Shown: in pieces, positions 4,062-31,325 of the stretch | Layout: each line of letters opens with the position of its first letter | Position numbering within the stretch: the stretch's first letter is position 1 | Source: Escherichia phage E21 | DNA length: 58,536 nt | Sequence record: NC_052983.1 | Strand: one strand, 5' to 3' | Program-made: the position numbers and the translations under genes | Notes under the pieces: generated by a model | Told to the model about the DNA's origin: nothing | The model's database searches: none | Seen by the model: only the letters and a program-made list of their open reading frames with translations

Positions 4062-5585
4062 CTAAACTTCCTTTTTCATCGCTTTTCTGAGATCACGTAA
4101 GGTCTTCAAGGCCCAATCTTGGTTTTCTTCCTTACGTCTCAGATTGTTATAAACGTGGCGGTCGGCTAGTTGGACTGTTCGGCCATCTTCATTTGTTCCG
4201 ACCGCAACTAAGTGGTGTACTGTTACTCGGTGCTTTTGACCTTGCCTATCGAGCCGGCCGATAAATTGGTCATAGTTCTCGAACGAATACGGAATGTCAT
4301 AGAAAAGAATTGTATGTCCGCCCCGCTGTAAATTCAAGCCGTGCCCCGCACTTTGAGGGTGTGCCATGTAAACTTTTATTCGCCCCGCGTTCCATTGTTT
4401 TATGTTATTTCCGTCTTTATCCATCTCGACGATATCCGGGAATCGGGCTAATATTCTTTCTCGTGATGACCGAAAGTGATACCCAAGGAAAACATTCTTT
4501 CCGGCTTCCTTTGCTTCTTCCAGAAACACTTCGAGCGCGTCTAGTTTCTCCTCGTGGATATCATAGATGTCGGTCTTCCTTATCGGCTCCTCGTTCTCAT
4601 CTATCCCGTCATAGTACGTGTTGTAAATAACGCCGGAGCACATTTGTAGCAGTTTCAATGCGAGTATCGCTGCCGATTGCGCTTCCACTATGACGTTTTC
4701 CGCTTCGGGTATCATCATGACTAAATTCTTTTGGAAGTCGAAATACTCCTTGGTGATCTTCTTATTGAGTTTTACCGGGATCACCTTTGGCTCATACGGT
4801 ACTCGATCGAGATAGTCTTCTGCTCGCATAACTACGCATATATCTTTTATCTTTTCTAAGATACGCATCTCCGTATCTTCTCTCGGCTTGATGCTGTGGT
4901 TATACGGGTTGTACTCGAAGTATTTATCCCTAAACTTATTGAAGCTACGGCCGAACCGTTTACCGTAATCAAGTAAATATATTTGAGAAAAGAACGAAGT
5001 AAATCCCTCGCCATTTGGGGTGGCCGTCAACTCGATTAGTCGTTTTATCCTCGGTCTGACTTTAGTTAAGTCCTTAAACCGCTTAGATTTGTGAGACTTA
5101 AAGGAACTCGACTCGTCTATGACCACCATATCGAACGGCCACTTGCCTTTGTAATAGTTTACTAGCCAGCTTACATTCTCTCGGTTTATGGATACGATAG
5201 GACTATTGCTATTTAGTACCGCTAGTCTTTCCTTGGGTGTTCCGACTGCCGGCGTTACTTTATACCCACATAGATGACCCCACTCCATGAATTCGTCCGG
5301 CCATGTTACTTTAGCCACCCTACGAGGGCCTATAATGAGAACTCTATCTACTTCAAAGTTATCAAGTAAGTCGGCGATCAGCGTTCCGGTTATTACGGTT
5401 TTGCCTATACCCATTTCGAGGAATAATCCGCAGAATGGAATGTCATGCGCCAGTTGTCGGGCTTCAACTTGATACTCGTGTAAGTCTTCCCGTTGTCTTT
5501 CAACAAGTTTTCTACCTTTCCTGATTTCTTCAAGTAGGTTAACTTTAGTCTTCCCAACCGTACGTTTCGAGAATTTCTTTCGCAT
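4062..5585 (-). CDS. SNF2-family (SF2) helicase
   Basis: 507 aa; Walker A GIGKT, DExx-type VVIDESS, motif III TATP, motif VI GRLDRQGQ. Confidence 0.8.
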   Translation of the reverse strand: MRKKFSKRTVGKTKVNLLEEIRKGRKLVERQREDLHEYQVEARQLAHDIPFCGLFLEMGIGKTVITGTLIADLLDNFEVDRVLIIGPRRVAKVTWPDEFMEWGHLCGYKVTPAVGTPKERLAVLNSNSPIVSINRENVSWLVNYYKGKWPFDMVVIDESSSFKSHKSKRFKDLTKVRPRIKRLIELTATPNGEGFTSFFSQIYLLDYGKRFGRSFNKFRDKYFEYNPYNHSIKPREDTEMRILEKIKDICVVMRAEDYLDRVPYEPKVIPVKLNKKITKEYFDFQKNLVMMIPEAENVIVEAQSAAILALKLLQMCSGVIYNTYYDGIDENEEPIRKTDIYDIHEEKLDALEVFLEEAKEAGKNVFLGYHFRSSRERILARFPDIVEMDKDGNNIKQWNAGRIKVYMAHPQSAGHGLNLQRGGHTILFYDIPYSFENYDQFIGRLDRQGQKHRVTVHHLVAVGTNEDGRTVQLADRHVYNNLRRKEENQDWALKTLRDLRKAMKKEV

Positions 5586-5832
5586 CGTTTAAATTATCCA
5601 CCCAATATACTAAAGCCCCGTAGCGCTTCATCTCGGCCATGCGTAATTCTTGTTGCTTCGACGGCTTCTCTCCGGGGCGTTTGATTTCGATAAAAACTAC
5701 AAAACTGTTTTTAATGAATATCCGGTCTGGTACGCCTCGTTTACCGGGGCTAGTAAATTTAGAAACCCACCAGCCTCGGGCCAAAGCGTATTTTCGGATA
5801 TCCGATTCGACTTTGCTCTCTCTAACAGTCAT
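5545..5832 (-). CDS. VRR-NUC domain nuclease
   Basis: 95 aa; GVPDRIF...FIEIKRPGEKPSKQQ matches the VRR-NUC PD-(D/E)xK signature; overlaps helicase start by 41 nt. Confidence 0.7.
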   Translation of the reverse strand: MTVRESKVESDIRKYALARGWWVSKFTSPGKRGVPDRIFIKNSFVVFIEIKRPGEKPSKQQELRMAEMKRYGALVYWVDNLNDAKEILETYGWED

Positions 5833-13991: not shown

Positions 13992-14786
13992 GGTTTTTTG
14001 ACACAAAGTGTGTCGGTCATGTGTTCCGACGTGTGCGTGCCAGTTAACGTGTTGATTTTATTGAAAACGCATTTTTTATGTTGTACAAAAATCACCCAAC
14101 ACACATGATCGAATTACCTTTATATAGCTTATATATATATTTTTCTATTTTTCCTTTCCTATCTATTTTTTCTTTCTTCTGGAATTTCTATTTTATTATC
14201 TATTACTGTGTTTGCTGTGTCAGAAAGAAAGTAATATAGTAAAAACAATAACTTACCTTGGAACACCTATTGGAACATCAGCCGGCACAGCAATTTCCTG
14301 TGACACACCACCAGCCATGGTAATACCTAAAACGGCGCATAACTATTTGATATTATTACGGAATTACCTAAAATACCGGTCATTACGGTAAACCCGCCCT
14401 CCCGATCTACTAGCTACGCTAGACCCGAATTAATCTAATTAAATCAACGATTTGCGACGAGGGGCTATGGCAGATCCCGGACAAATTTCTGGAAGACGGC
14501 TCTGCGCACCCCCGCCCAACCGGACAACTCGTCCAAGTACCTTTTTCGATTTAAAAGTGATTCTTCTCTAGAAAGCACGGAGAGCGACGCACAGGCTTTA
14601 GCAATAGGGGACATCATCTAACACCGCGATCGCCTCGCACAATCGCACACGCTTACAATTTGAAGCACATCTAACCCACAACACCGCCCACCCGAACACC
14701 CAAACATCGAAACATCACGAAAAGCGGTTATATTTGTAAAAACGTCATGCGGTACAACCGCACACCCGAACACCCGCACAAAACGT

Positions 14787-17737: not shown

Positions 17738-17790
17738 TTTAAAATCCTCAATACTGGTTAAAGTTTCCGGTTCGTTCCGGCTATGTGTGT

Positions 17791-17819
17791 AATATAATGC
17801 TACCGCTTTCAGGTGTCAA
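17791..17819 (-). promoter_or_regulatory. sigma70-like promoter, cassette A (TTGACA-17-TATATT) with conserved leader
   Basis: Minus-strand TTGACAcctgaaagcggtagcatTATATT; ~85-bp cassette repeated near-identically at 19510..19590 and 21000..21075. Confidence 0.6.
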
Positions 17820-17898
17820 CATGTTTTTATAATTATTTTAGATAATAAAAAAGGACGGCCACCAGAAAAGATGACCGCCCCGATTGTTGATGCTTCGA

Positions 17899-18120
17899 TT
17901 ACCGTGTGAGCATCGTAACCACGGATTTTTTAACCATTTCCAAGGAATCCCCGCCAAGGCTCACACCTTGCCCGCAGAAAGTCCACGGCTTGAGGTGGTG
18001 TGGTGTCTTGGCAATCGTCCCGATCCATACACCGCCCGCAACAACGTAATAAATATTTTCGCCTCGCTCTTGGTAAATCTCGATCGTCTTATCCAAGGTT
18101 GGATTATTTACCGGCTTCAT
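17899..18120 (-). CDS. hypothetical protein
   Basis: Track ORF 17899..18174 trimmed to internal Met (MKPVNN) to limit overlap with upstream gene. Confidence 0.35.
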   Translation of the reverse strand: MKPVNNPTLDKTIEIYQERGENIYYVVAGGVWIGTIAKTPHHLKPWTFCGQGVSLGGDSLEMVKKSVVTMLTR

Positions 18121-18754
18121 TTTCTCCCCCTTTAATCTTAACGAGTTCTTGCTTGTACTCGGATCCGAGCACATAATTTTTATTTTCTTCCTTGGGATAA
18201 GGCAATACCGGATATCGAAGCAACTTTTTATACTTCTTCACGACCGAACGGCTCCCCGTAAAATAAACGTAACGATGCTTAGATGTTCTGACTTGTCGAT
18301 ACGTCTTGCTTTCCTTTCCTTGATAATGCCGAGAGTGTTTACCTTGCTCCGTGTATTTATCGGTGCGCGCTTTCGTCGCCCCCGTGTAGATGAAATTAGA
18401 CGCTTGATAAATATATCCGTTGTGGTTCATACCGCGATCCGCATACGACACGATGACAAGGTTTTCACTTTTCAACTCAGCCATAGCGAAGGCGATCAAC
18501 TGCGACGGAGCGTTACGGATTGGACGAATAAAACAAAGTCGGTTTAACTCAAAAACGTGGCTTTTGTACTCCTCGCCCAATATTCCAACACATAGCGGGT
18601 TGCTGGCCGGCTTACCGATAGTTAGAACCCCGACAAGCTCCTCGTCTTCGAAGAACCCGAAAGCGTAAGATATGCTAGGTCGACGTTTCGCATAATGGTA
18701 GTTTAGGATTATGTCTAAACAGTCTTTAGGATCAACGCGTCTCATCGTGTACAC
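18104..18754 (-). CDS. hypothetical protein with GNAT-like C-terminal motif (possible acyltransferase / Mom-like)
   Basis: 216 aa; ...IVSYADRGMNHNGYIYQASNFIYTG resembles GNAT motif B; assignment is tentative. Confidence 0.45.
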   Translation of the reverse strand: MYTMRRVDPKDCLDIILNYHYAKRRPSISYAFGFFEDEELVGVLTIGKPASNPLCVGILGEEYKSHVFELNRLCFIRPIRNAPSQLIAFAMAELKSENLVIVSYADRGMNHNGYIYQASNFIYTGATKARTDKYTEQGKHSRHYQGKESKTYRQVRTSKHRYVYFTGSRSVVKKYKKLLRYPVLPYPKEENKNYVLGSEYKQELVKIKGGENEAGK

Positions 18755-18757
18755 GTT

Positions 18758-19498
18758 TTAACCCTCCCACGTCCACGATTCTGAGGCGTCACGAACAATA
18801 ATTTCGGCCGGACGATTCGCGCGTATCGCAACGTCTTTACCATCAACGAAGTAGACCGCGAAAAAATGCCCGAACACGTCGCCATCTTTCACGTGGATTT
18901 CTCGCCCGTCGTCTTCGCAGTAGAACACTGTAAGCCCGTCAACTGATGCTTCGTTGTTCACTTCGAAACCAAGGCTTGACAGGCCGTCTAACAGTGGGCG
19001 CATTGTGTCGAAACTTTCAGGGAGTGACGCCAAGATCAAGGCGTCTAAATCGCTAACCGCGTTACGTTTAAGCGTCACACACCCGCCGATCGTGAAAGTT
19101 ATGTCCCAACCTTCGGCTTCTTCGCCACGGCTAAAAAATATGGCTTTTAATTCTTTCCCGTCGATTGTTTTCGCAAATGTTGTCGCTCCGTGAGATTTAT
19201 CAAGGTCTAAAGAGAACCCCAGCGCTTTCATTACGGCGATAGTTCGTGCGGATAAGTCCGCATCATTGGCCATATGACAGCTCGCACCATGATCGAACAC
19301 GCTCACCTCGACGCTCTCAAATAGGTAACGTGCTAGTGGAATGAATTTATCGAAATCCGCAATTAATGCTATCGCCCCCGATAATGTTTTAACATCGCCC
19401 ACCTTGGCGCGAGGGTTAACTGTCAAAATATAATTACGAACACTTTCGGGCATATCAAAAGGGCTGTTATCGGTTACAACGTTAGAAATGAAAGTCAT
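18758..19498 (-). CDS. hypothetical protein
   Basis: 246 aa; preceded by promoter cassette B and RBS GAGGA. Confidence 0.55.
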   Translation of the reverse strand: MTFISNVVTDNSPFDMPESVRNYILTVNPRAKVGDVKTLSGAIALIADFDKFIPLARYLFESVEVSVFDHGASCHMANDADLSARTIAVMKALGFSLDLDKSHGATTFAKTIDGKELKAIFFSRGEEAEGWDITFTIGGCVTLKRNAVSDLDALILASLPESFDTMRPLLDGLSSLGFEVNNEASVDGLTVFYCEDDGREIHVKDGDVFGHFFAVYFVDGKDVAIRANRPAEIIVRDASESWTWEG

Positions 19499-19552
19499 GA
19501 TTTAAATCCTCAAAACTGGTTTAAGTTTCCGGTTCGTTCCGGCGATGTGAGT

Positions 19553-19581
19553 AATATAATACTACCGCTTTCAGGTGTCAA
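19553..19581 (-). promoter_or_regulatory. sigma70-like promoter, cassette B (TTGACA-17-TATATT)
   Basis: Near-identical to cassettes A and C. Confidence 0.6.
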
Positions 19582-19609
19582 CAAGTTTTTTATAAATATT
19601 TTAGGCAAT

Positions 19610-19650
19610 AAAAAACCTCTTACCGTGGCACCGAATAAGAGGTTTTAGTT
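19610..19650 (-). terminator. rho-independent terminator (structurally bidirectional)
   Basis: CCUCUUA-13 nt loop-UAAGAGG; U6 on minus strand, UUUUAGUU on plus. Confidence 0.65.
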
Positions 19651-19758: not shown

Positions 19759-20047
19759 TAAAATATAAGGCTTAATGACCTAAAATTACGCAAACTTTAC
19801 GAAGTGTGGCACAAGCAACCCAAATCAACCAACGGATGCGAACTTATCCACCGTTGAGCCGAACAATAACACCGTTACGTGGTGCTGTCAAGCGTCGCTA
19901 CACATAGCCCAATTGAACCGCGCCACGGTGAATATATCCCACAGGATACGCACTTTAATCGAAACAAAACTAGCCCGTTACTACTGCGAGCCTCAGATCT
20001 AAACGGCTTACCGCATGAACAATAATACCAGTTTTTCTTTTCCCTGA

Positions 20048-20413
20048 TCACCATACAGACCCCCTTACGTTCGTTAGCGTGTCCCTATAACTCCGGTATA
20101 AATTTTTTGCGCCTCGTATCCATTCGCCGGCGATCTCCCCCGAGAAAAGAACCGGCTCGTAAACCGGATAAGTGACATTAGGGTAATCCGTTCTTACGTC
20201 GTCGATCCTAACGTATGCCCTCCGGTGTCCATAAGAATATCGGACGGTTAGGACTCTAAGCAACTTGTTGTTAACATGGAACACCACGCCATAAGAGTAA
20301 TTAAATTCCGGTAATGATAAATCGTTGCTAGGCCTCCCGATAGCCACTACCGGTAGATTTAGAAACTCATTACAAACCTCATAAAATTTGAAACAATTTA
20401 CTGAGTTACCCAT
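20048..20413 (-). CDS. hypothetical protein
   Basis: Track ORF 20048..20515 trimmed to internal Met (MGNSVN), which overlaps the stop of the upstream gene. Confidence 0.45.
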   Translation of the reverse strand: MGNSVNCFKFYEVCNEFLNLPVVAIGRPSNDLSLPEFNYSYGVVFHVNNKLLRVLTVRYSYGHRRAYVRIDDVRTDYPNVTYPVYEPVLFSGEIAGEWIRGAKNLYRSYRDTLTNVRGSVW

Positions 20414-20975: not shown

Positions 20976-21029
20976 GGTAATACTCCTCAATACTGGTTAA
21001 AGTTTCCGGTTCGTTCCGGCTATGTGTGT

Positions 21030-21058
21030 AATATAATACTACCGCTTTCAGGTGTCAA
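21030..21058 (-). promoter_or_regulatory. sigma70-like promoter, cassette C (TTGACA-17-TATATT)
   Basis: Near-identical to cassettes A and B. Confidence 0.6.
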
Positions 21059-21080
21059 CATGTTTTTGTGATTATTTTAA

Positions 21081-22287: not shown

Positions 22288-22562
22288 TTTTATCTATAAA
22301 AATTCTGACGGAACAAAGGAAACGCGCCCACCGGTGCGCCCGTACATACATATAAGTCGGCCAGTTTGTACTTATCTACAAAAATTTCGGGCTTACTTCA
22401 AAAACCTCGCGGGCCGATGATTTTCTGTGACGATTTAAAAACTTTTCCGGCCGGCTTACTTCAAAAACCTCGCGGGCTGAAAAAATTCCCGTGAGAAATA
22501 AAAACCGGCCAATGGATTTATCTACAAAAATTAGAACCTTACTTCAAAAACCTCGCCGGTTG
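22288..22562. repeat. iteron-like direct repeat array (3x TATCTAyAAAAATT and 3x CTTACTTCAAAAACCTCGC(G/C)GG)
   Basis: Motif A at 22291, 22373, 22519; motif B at 22392, 22455, 22538; in the divergent control region between minus promoter D and plus promoter 22621. Confidence 0.7.
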
Positions 22563-27552: not shown

Positions 27553-28177
27553 GTTAGATGAAGTACGCAAATTATCATACTCGTTCAAACTGCCCGAAGA
27601 TGTCCGAGAGGGAACCTATGTAGTTTTACGCTTCGAATCTGAGGTAGGAAAGTGGTATCAGAACGCAAATATTGTTAGCTATATGCTCGGTGTTATCAGC
27701 CACACTACTAAGACACAATTCCAAGTTTCTTGTGAGGGTTTATCCTCCCCGATGCGTTTCGGGCGCGATGGCGGTATCCGCGCAGACAGCAAGGGACAAG
27801 TTGGTGGCGCACTAAGAACGTCAGTATTCCTTGCCGGTAGTGCAGATACCGCAGAAGAATACATCAAGGGCCAAGTAGAACAACACAACGACCCCGAAGT
27901 AGTAAGACGCGAGCCAACGTTCCACTTAAAAAATGCTGACGATTTGATAGGTATCATCGTCAAGCTGGACAAGCTGATAAACGATGCGACAACGCTATGG
28001 GGCGCAATACCTGAAAAATGGAAAGGCCGAGAGCAACGACGTAGCCGAAACGACCGAATACCGCATGATATGTTAGTAGCGATCTTGTGTAATCCGGACG
28101 CATCGGACATATTAGCAGACCTATTTAAGTCCATAGCTAAAGCATTCGGAGTATCAACCAAAAAAGAGGAAGAATGA
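27545..28177 (+). CDS. hypothetical protein
   Basis: 210-aa ORF. Confidence 0.5.
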   Translation: MTKLDEVRKLSYSFKLPEDVREGTYVVLRFESEVGKWYQNANIVSYMLGVISHTTKTQFQVSCEGLSSPMRFGRDGGIRADSKGQVGGALRTSVFLAGSADTAEEYIKGQVEQHNDPEVVRREPTFHLKNADDLIGIIVKLDKLINDATTLWGAIPEKWKGREQRRSRNDRIPHDMLVAILCNPDASDILADLFKSIAKAFGVSTKKEEE

Positions 28178-28914
28178 TGATCAATCCCTACGCGGTGGAA
28201 TTACAGAAATTGAAAGACGCCAAGAAACACATTCCAAAGCAGATAAAAGACCAATGGCGTACTCCGGACTGGCTTTTCTACGCGCTAAACTCTTTATACG
28301 GCCCGTTCTTGGTAGATTTGTTTTCAGATGGACAGAATGCTAAGTGCTCCCGGTATTTCATGGCCGAGGATAATGCGCTACAACAGAACTGGAAAGAAGC
28401 ACTAGAAGACGCCAAGTTTGAATTCCTTATCGATGCAGACTGTGCGGGGTACGATGCTACTGACGATCTAAAGACGGCCAAGTGTTTTGCTAACCCGCCA
28501 TACAGCCCGGCTAAGTATATCGGTAAAGGGCGTAAGAATAGAATACCGCTCTGTGGTATGCGAAATATCATGGCTAAGGCCTACGAGGAACACAAGGCCG
28601 GTTGCCCTTCATTCTGGTTGCTTAAATCCGCCACGTCAGAAGATTGGTGGCCTAACGAGACCGCAAGCCAGATAATCCACATCAAGGGTAGAATTGCTTT
28701 CGAGAAACCGGTGTGGTTTAGAGATGAGGTCGTAGACCGCGTGGAAAGTAGTGCTGCTTTCGGTGCGTCCGTTGCTATTTTTAACGGAATAAACGATATT
28801 CAAGAACCGGAAGCCTACATCAGTCGAGATACCTTAAAATTAATAGGGGAGCCACTTGCTGAAATTAATGCGGAAAGACGCGCCGAGTGGATAGCTAGTT
28901 TCGACGATCTATAA
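28174..28914 (+). CDS. phage-type DNA N6-adenine methyltransferase
   Basis: N-terminal WRTPDWLF and catalytic-type FANPPY motifs typical of the phage Dam family; RBS GAGGAAGA. Confidence 0.7.
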   Translation: MMINPYAVELQKLKDAKKHIPKQIKDQWRTPDWLFYALNSLYGPFLVDLFSDGQNAKCSRYFMAEDNALQQNWKEALEDAKFEFLIDADCAGYDATDDLKTAKCFANPPYSPAKYIGKGRKNRIPLCGMRNIMAKAYEEHKAGCPSFWLLKSATSEDWWPNETASQIIHIKGRIAFEKPVWFRDEVVDRVESSAAFGASVAIFNGINDIQEPEAYISRDTLKLIGEPLAEINAERRAEWIASFDDL

Positions 28915-30860: not shown

Positions 30861-31325
30861 ATGAAATTAGTATACATAGCTGGCCCATACCGCGCAGACA
30901 CCAAAGAGGGCGTGGCTGAAAATATCCGTAAGGCACAAGTAATCGGGCTATCTCTAACCACCAACGGACATACATTAGGGGTATTCCCCGTGATCCCTCA
31001 CATGAATACGGCGCACTTTGAGACCCACACTTTAACCGTATCACAAAAATTCAGCGCTTTTATTGAGCCGGTGCCAGATGAATACTGGCTACAAGGAACA
31101 ATGGCATTGATGGAAAAATGCGATGCGGTTTTATTGACGCACCCACAAGCCGGCATAACAAGCAAGGGAACGCGGGCGGAGGTTATGCGCGCTATTGAGT
31201 TGGGTATTCCTGTTTATGACCACATAAACGGTCTACTATCTGACCTTAGAGACGAATCAACGCCTCTACGAAGTATTAATGTTTTGAATGACAAGCGAGA
31301 ATTTCTCGGGGCGGTTGATGAGTGA
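30861..31325 (+). CDS. DUF4406-like / nucleoside 2-deoxyribosyltransferase-like protein
   Basis: N-terminal MKLVYIAGPYRA motif typical of this Rossmann-like family; RBS AGAGGG. Confidence 0.5.
   Translation: MKLVYIAGPYRADTKEGVAENIRKAQVIGLSLTTNGHTLGVFPVIPHMNTAHFETHTLTVSQKFSAFIEPVPDEYWLQGTMALMEKCDAVLLTHPQAGITSKGTRAEVMRAIELGIPVYDHINGLLSDLRDESTPLRSINVLNDKREFLGAVDE

Follow-up and report, generated by a model that had tools for sequence, protein, structure and literature searches.

A stand-alone gene of the Mom family in the leftward accessory region of Escherichia phage E21

The DNA analysed here, a stretch of 58,536 nucleotides from Escherichia phage E21 (NC_052983.1) that we call the window, carries on its minus strand, at positions 18104-18754, a gene for a protein of 216 amino acids whose membership in the Mom family is hardly open to question. 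The product would be a stand-alone enzyme of this family, a branch of the GNAT fold whose prototype, the Mom protein of phage Mu, decorates adenines in the DNA of the phage and so evades bacterial restriction enzymes. The first-pass annotation had drawn an open reading frame (ORF) at exactly these coordinates and had called its product GNAT-like and "possibly Mom-like", while grading the assignment as weak. The ORF is real, searches by profile, by comparison of profiles and by fold agree on Mom, and the assignment is a strong one. The reading that we prefer, and to which we give a probability of about 0.65, is that the enzyme would modify the N6 position of adenines in DNA in a reaction dependent on glycyl-tRNA (Gly-tRNA), with anti-restriction as its function.

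In Pfam, the protein matches Mom (PF25680) with an E value of 1.6e-35 and a score of 123 bits (cut-off 27.1), over positions 2-202 of a profile of 202, and up to E<=10 no other family was reported, acetyltransferases included. The match to PHROG 1384 (phrog_1384), named "Mom-like DNA modification protein", is stronger still (E=1.5e-69), and a sequence search of solved structures gives a single significant match, 8BV8, which is the Mom protein of phage Mu (E=3.5e-7). Comparison of profiles, the check that the first-pass annotation had proposed, also finds Mom: with hhalign, profiles built from 53 sequences of the type found in the window (A1) and 43 of the Mu type (A2) align with a probability of 99.6% (E=4e-24) over residues 2-193 of the window protein and 39-241 of Mu Mom, and homology is therefore full-length, not limited to the GNAT core. 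The only NCBIfam match, XF1762_fam, is below threshold (21.9 versus 50 bits). A secondary PHROG match, to positions 366-492 of the 536 in phrog_3339 (a 'homing endonuclease' family), may reflect proteins in which a Mom domain is fused to other domains. Among the matches in the library of representative sequences, some Mom domains of the window type sit inside much longer proteins (for example P0343, 721 amino acids; P0351, 680; P0318, 509), which is consistent with the phrog_3339 match and with the Mom-nuclease fusions published from jumbo phages (PMC7824862).

The predicted fold leads to the same family. An AlphaFold2 model of the protein has a mean predicted local distance difference test score (pLDDT) of 88.2 and a predicted template modelling score (pTM) of 0.83, and when this model is compared with the PDB by Foldseek, the two Mu Mom chains 8bv8_B and 8bv8_A rank first (E=7e-11 and 8e-10, template modelling (TM) scores of 0.66-0.70), followed by generic GNAT acetyltransferases with E values of 1e-5 or above and TM scores of 0.52 or less. 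The GNAT core occupies residues 1-133. The block IVSYADRGMNHNGYIYQASNFIYTG, in which the first-pass annotation had seen a resemblance to GNAT motif B, corresponds to residues 101-125; since the model has there a strand (100-106), a helix (114-118) and another strand (122-126), which make up the beta5-alpha4 region (motif B) of the GNAT fold, the resemblance is real. The C-terminal half (residues 126-216) is basic, with an isoelectric point (pI) of 10.0, and holds an insertion loop (134-151), an RY..F motif and the sequence PYPK.

To compare the active site with that of Mu Mom, we used alignments of 117-120 close homologues and 107-108 Mu-type sequences, along with 105 representatives of more distant clusters. 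In Mu Mom, R111, S124 and R151 are essential (R151A has no detectable activity), H58, Y59, D149, Y159, W48 and W181 are important, and no activity is left once an insertion resembling a helix-turn-helix (roughly 175-209) is deleted (Silva et al. 2026, PMC13219725); an earlier study had arrived at six core residues, the ones compared here, with numbers lower by 10 (Karambelkar et al. 2020, PMC7261163). These six, Mu H58, Y59, R111, S124, D149 and Y159, align to H20, Y21, R72, S84, D106 and Y116 of the window protein, which are invariant in the close homologues, found in at least 97% of the 108 sequences of the Mu type and kept in at least 94% of the 105 distant representatives. Also common to both groups are E69-L70-N71, Q117-A118 and several glycines, and in the C-terminal half R161, Y162, F165, P187 and K188, which align to Mu R216, Y217, F220, P240 and K241, are invariant in both, P187-K188 corresponding to the terminal PYPK of Mu Mom. 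Mu Mom (NP_050657, PDB 8BV8) shares with the window protein the GNAT core with an insertion between beta6 and beta7 (much shorter in the window protein, see below), the basic C-terminus with PYPK and the stand-alone gene.

The window protein nevertheless belongs to a large clade separate from Mu-type Mom. Searched against a library of 1.84 billion representatives, it matches 1,825 clusters (formed at 50% identity) with E<=1e-3 and 657 with E<=1e-10. Mom-like proteins of PHROG 1384 from Listeria phages LP-125 and LP-114, Staphylococcus Twort-like phages and Bacillus Riggi phages fall in the same clade and are 43-56% identical to the window protein over nearly their full length, although they come from other hosts, other phage families and unrelated gene neighbourhoods; we found no experimental characterisation of these proteins in the literature. 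The clade has in common the consensus features GKPAS, ADxxxxH with an invariant histidine, GKHSRHY and PYPKxENKNY, the last of these belonging to a C-terminal extension of 28 residues (PYPKxENKNYxLG...) that is conserved within the clade and sets it apart from Mu Mom.

Mu Mom transfers glycine from Gly-tRNA(Gly) to the N6 of adenine in double-stranded DNA, and the adduct rearranges to N6-carbamoylmethyl-deoxyadenosine (PMC13219725). It is by analogy with this reaction that we infer the donor, the product, the target sequence and the anti-restriction role of the window enzyme. The basic C-terminal half of the protein (residues 126-216) would bind double-stranded DNA, Gly-tRNA(Gly) of the host would supply an activated glycyl group, and the enzyme would place this group on the N6 amino group of an adenine, after which the adduct would rearrange on the base to N6-carbamoylmethyl-adenine, a modification that blocks many restriction endonucleases, and progeny phage DNA would be protected from restriction. 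We found no phage-encoded tRNA in the window, tRNA(Gly) included, so that a tRNA of the host would have to serve as donor.

Several points weigh against extending the Mu mechanism to the window protein in full. The window protein and Mu Mom are only about 26% identical overall. Nothing in the window protein corresponds to Mu residues 1-38, which include Y28 and the basic segment 11-19 that is thought to aid tRNA binding. The GTG start codon is the longest reading of the ORF, no upstream extension being possible, the matching codon is ATG in the orthologue of the E21 record with which the window was compared, and residues 2-6 are confidently modelled as the first beta strand. Of the residues important in Mu, the dimer residue W48 aligns to K10, where members of the clade have K, E, Q or R, and R151, which is arginine in 108 of 108 Mu-type sequences, is replaced by G108 (G, Q, A, S or N clade-wide). 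The absence of R151 is a difference of the whole clade and no flaw peculiar to the window gene; three residues past G108 the clade has a histidine of its own, H111 (invariant, in 104 of 105 sequences), while the adjoining R107 is variable. The insertion (residues 134-151) is about 15 residues shorter than its Mu equivalent (175-209) and has no W181; the model shows it as a loop of low confidence (pLDDT 61-70) instead of helices, and H140, R142, H143 and Y144 are invariant in it. To this must be added that we found no literature report of modified DNA in Lavrentievavirus, the genus to which the window phage is assigned below, or in any other phage with a Mom-like protein of the window type. DNA of RP6, a relative carrying the intact transcription unit described below, is cut by EcoRI and HindIII (PMC10194311); the sites of these two enzymes lie outside the SASNY context of Mu, and this result is therefore uninformative, not contrary.

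These differences give substance to the one serious rival, a nucleic-acid modifier of the Mom fold with another donor or specificity, that is, one using a different aminoacyl-tRNA or acyl donor, or acting on another DNA context, another base or RNA. Exchange of R151 for G, A, S, N or Q alongside the clade's own H111, a DNA-facing insertion half as long with its own invariant H140-x-R142-H143-Y144 motif, and the loss of W48, W181 and the N-terminal basic segment would all fit such a change, and according to Silva et al. donor and substrate are not predictable from structure (PMC13219725). On the other hand, the residues conserved family-wide are those of the active site (H, Y, ELNR, S, D, YQA), and two randomly chosen metagenomic homologues, which may or may not belong to the clade, are reported to be active when assayed for the product of Mu Mom (PMC13219725). 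We consider this rival a real but distinctly minor possibility. A more specific version, in which the clade installs a chemically different DNA hypermodification (another aminoacyl group, context or base), and does so early, from a constitutive host-type promoter, seems to us a little less likely again.

The other alternative named by the first-pass annotation, an ordinary GNAT dependent on acetyl-coenzyme A (acetyl-CoA) and acting on a protein or a small molecule, is not borne out. It has in its favour the GNAT fold itself, the many generic acetyltransferases among the weaker fold matches, the label 'acetyltransferase' attached to some distant phage homologues and the in vitro binding of acetyl-CoA reported for Mu Mom (PMC7261163). 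Against this stand the lack of any acetyltransferase family, such as PF00583 or PF13508, in the Pfam search and the markedly lower TM scores to generic GNATs than to Mom, both given above, as well as the loop between beta4 and alpha3 (after strand 67-75), which reads IRPIRNAPSQ and lacks both the canonical pyrophosphate-binding motif Q/R-x-x-G-x-G/A and any Gly-x-Gly/Ala. The basic C-terminal half and the Mom-specific R72 are moreover conserved, and the acetyl-CoA model of Mom itself has been superseded by Gly-tRNA (PMC13219725). On the evidence of profiles, CoA loop, TM scores and Mom features we rejected the acetyltransferase reading, which we regard as improbable.

A GNAT that acts on charged tRNA in the manner of the TacT and AtaT toxins, and thereby shuts down host translation, would agree with the binding of aminoacyl-tRNA by Mom-type enzymes and the superposition of Mom on TacT (PMC13219725), and with expression apparently from a strong host-type promoter. 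FemX (4II9) and TacT (7F36) likewise combine the GNAT fold with an aminoacyl-tRNA as donor or substrate, and both served Silva et al. as models of Mom binding tRNA and DNA (PMC13219725). Neither has a detectable sequence-family relationship to the window protein, however, and their acceptors are peptidoglycan precursors or a tRNA-bound amino acid, not DNA. As the sequence family is Mom and not that of a toxin GNAT, the Mom-specific DNA-facing C-terminal region is conserved and the screened neighbouring ORFs include no antitoxin-like partner, such an activity is very improbable.

Judged by its sequence, the window phage is a Proteus mirabilis siphovirus of the genus Lavrentievavirus (Casjensviridae). 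The window is collinear with the compared E21 record, and the 5 kb surrounding the Mom-like gene are 94-96% identical to phages P2-71, Q29, pPM_01 and others. Twenty-five phage records carry the complete unit from promoter to terminator, with a nucleotide identity of 92-96%. The counterpart in Proteus phage pPM_01, gp08 (YP_009199621.1), is 99.1% identical at the protein level and has the same position, neighbours, promoter cassette and overlaps; its RefSeq name is 'Mom-like DNA modification protein', an annotation made from similarity only. Between these two genes there are 21 nucleotide differences and a single amino acid difference, with a ratio of nonsynonymous to synonymous substitution rates (dN/dS) of 0.012, and between the window gene and that of the compared E21 record 48 nucleotide and 8 amino acid differences (the start codon included), with a ratio of 0.046. 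The Mom-like protein is therefore under strong purifying selection, and although the gene can be dispensed with (it is deleted in phage PLY284, see below), a decaying or non-functional remnant of the accessory region, the least probable of the readings, was rejected on these ratios with their mostly synonymous differences, the intact ORF in all 25 records, the complete set of core active-site residues and the confidently predicted fold. Several further records are 92-95% identical to Proteus Lavrentievavirus in this region under other names, namely PV596763.1 (Pseudomonas phage E21), PV593182.1 (Staphylococcus phage SVV09-A), OR506460.1 (Enterococcus phage AS-M1_NWU) and OR699184-OR699187 (Salmonella phages SD-11 to SD-14), and their host labels look doubtful.

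Conservation of the sequence does not extend to conservation of the gene in every relative. Proteus phage PLY284 (PV568318.1), of the same genus, has a deletion corresponding to window positions 18151-18755, almost exactly the Mom-like ORF, and retains the last 14 Mom-like codons, which carry the ribosome-binding site and start codon of the next gene. So clean a loss is in keeping with an accessory gene for anti-defence. In Kokobel1 (MW145139.1), a phage of Providencia, the slot between the gene for a 246-amino-acid protein and one resembling that for a 73-amino-acid protein, the two genes that flank the Mom-like gene in the window, is occupied by an unrelated gene for 284 amino acids (4940-5794), and in a metagenomic relative among the Casjensviridae (L010 853-1979) the same slot holds genes for 73 and 309 amino acids in place of the Mom-like gene; none of these slot genes has an informative match in Pfam or PHROG. 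The Mom-like gene is thus dispensable and exchangeable, and its site behaves as an exchangeable cargo slot in related Casjensviridae. The closest homologues outside this group (65-73% identical) lie on contigs of unrelated phages together with none of the genes that neighbour it in the window, which fits the single-enzyme nature of momylation. Taken together, the PLY284 deletion, the replacement in Kokobel1 and the unrelated contexts of the homologues support the "accessory island" of the first-pass annotation and fit a horizontally acquired, stand-alone anti-defence gene. The two flanking genes were considered as partners of Mom and rejected, being absent beside the closest outside homologues and both present without Mom in Kokobel1.

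In the window, the Mom-like gene is the middle one of three in a unit transcribed on the minus strand. Directly upstream of the unit's promoter, a terminator-like hairpin followed by a U-run (19612-19646, minus strand; folding free energy -17.3 kcal/mol, z=-4.4, none of 200 shuffled sequences as stable) would shield the unit from upstream transcription. The promoter belongs to a cassette of 96 nucleotides that also comprises the 5' untranslated region and the ribosome-binding site (19507-19602, minus strand). The promoter itself consists of a -35 hexamer TTGACA (19581-19576), a spacer of 17 nucleotides and a -10 hexamer TATATT (19558-19553), a match of 11 out of 12 to the sigma-70 consensus, and is followed by a small CCGG..CCGG hairpin, a GAGGA Shine-Dalgarno sequence and the ATG at 19498. 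This ATG opens the first gene (18758-19498, minus strand), which encodes an acidic protein of 246 amino acids (pI 4.6) with no assigned function and no Pfam match, placed in PHROG 38602 (unknown function); among 5.8 billion proteins it has only six clusters of homologues, all apparently from this phage group. Its TAA stop codon lies only 3 nucleotides before the GTG of the Mom-like gene, which has a GGGAGGG Shine-Dalgarno sequence 7 nucleotides upstream. The third gene (17899-18120, minus strand), for a protein of 73 amino acids with no assigned function (PHROG 37849; gp07 in pPM_01), overlaps the 3' end of the Mom-like gene by 17 nucleotides and has its ribosome-binding site, GGGGGAG, within the Mom-like tail codons. 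A strong intrinsic terminator (17852-17881, minus strand) with a stem of 12 base pairs, 7 of them GC, and a T-run closes the unit (-20.9 kcal/mol, z=-4.6), and after it comes the next copy of the cassette.

The cassette is found three times on the minus strand, at 17745-17840, 19507-19602 and 20984-21079, with 85-100% identity between copies, and its core of 31 nucleotides has three occurrences for zero expected. It is kept at the equivalent sites in pPM_01 and in the compared E21 record, where both hexamers are intact and substitutions are confined to the spacer. The three copies head successive short transcription units of the leftward accessory region, each apparently with its own terminator, and a fourth, similar promoter is located at 22282-22254.

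The mom gene of phage Mu forms an operon with com, which overlaps it and encodes a zinc-finger translational activator, and is transcribed from a late promoter dependent on C and on Dam and OxyR. Nothing comparable was recognised here. Ten ORFs neighbouring the Mom-like gene, among them a cysteine-rich one of 59 amino acids at 19875-20054, have no Pfam or PHROG match to Com or to any other named family, the matches being confined to unnamed PHROGs and two in Pfam below threshold, and no GATC site can be read in the promoter cassette. Unlike mom of phage Mu, the Mom-like gene would appear to be free of control by Com, C or Dam. As it has a near-consensus sigma-70 cassette and a closing terminator, it is probably transcribed by the host RNA polymerase, so that the enzyme would be produced early in lytic infection or all through it. 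We infer expression from a promoter of the host sigma-70 type and, if this is correct, regulation would be quite unlike that of the Mu gene: a near-consensus promoter in a lytic siphovirus, as opposed to late expression gated by Dam/OxyR, C and Com in a transposable temperate phage.

Two other genes of the window had been linked to the Mom-like gene in the first-pass annotation as a sign of DNA modification. A Dam-type methyltransferase is indeed present (28174-28914, plus strand), as a phage-type member of PF05869 (E=9e-30). The supposed DUF4406-like protein (30861-31325, plus strand) fared less well, as DUF4406 was not reported for it and it has only a marginal match to DUF7768 (28.1 bits for a cut-off of 26); in the E21 annotation it is a nucleoside 2-deoxyribosyltransferase. 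The functional link itself finds no support, the two genes being part of another module, on the opposite strand and at a distance of about 10 kb. Elsewhere in the window, three copies of a repeat of about 47 nucleotides (…GGCTTACTTCAAAAACCTCGCGGG…), spaced by 63 and 83 nucleotides, lie in the intergenic region that separates the leftward gene block from the rightward one (22367-22559) and could be operator or iteron-like sites. Short direct repeats rich in C and A (ACCGCCCACCCGAACACCCAAACA and variants) form a cluster at 14683-14780, close to the far end of the leftward region.

The identification of the gene is correct but ordinary, a Mom-like annotation being already public: the pPM_01 gene, 99% identical, is named Mom-like in RefSeq, and the annotation as such therefore adds nothing new. 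What is added is the comparison at the level of residues, including the missing R151, the unit from promoter to terminator with its repeated cassette, the regulatory contrast with Mu and the deletion in PLY284. Proteus phages of this kind are being developed for therapy, and an enzyme that protects their DNA from restriction by modifying it affects the range of hosts and can affect the sequencing and restriction mapping of that DNA. The tRNA-dependent modification of DNA by Mom was first demonstrated in 2026, for Mu-type enzymes only, and a clade that does without one of the residues essential in Mu bears on which features of that mechanism are general. With its clean deletion, PLY284 provides a natural, near-isogenic mom-minus control.

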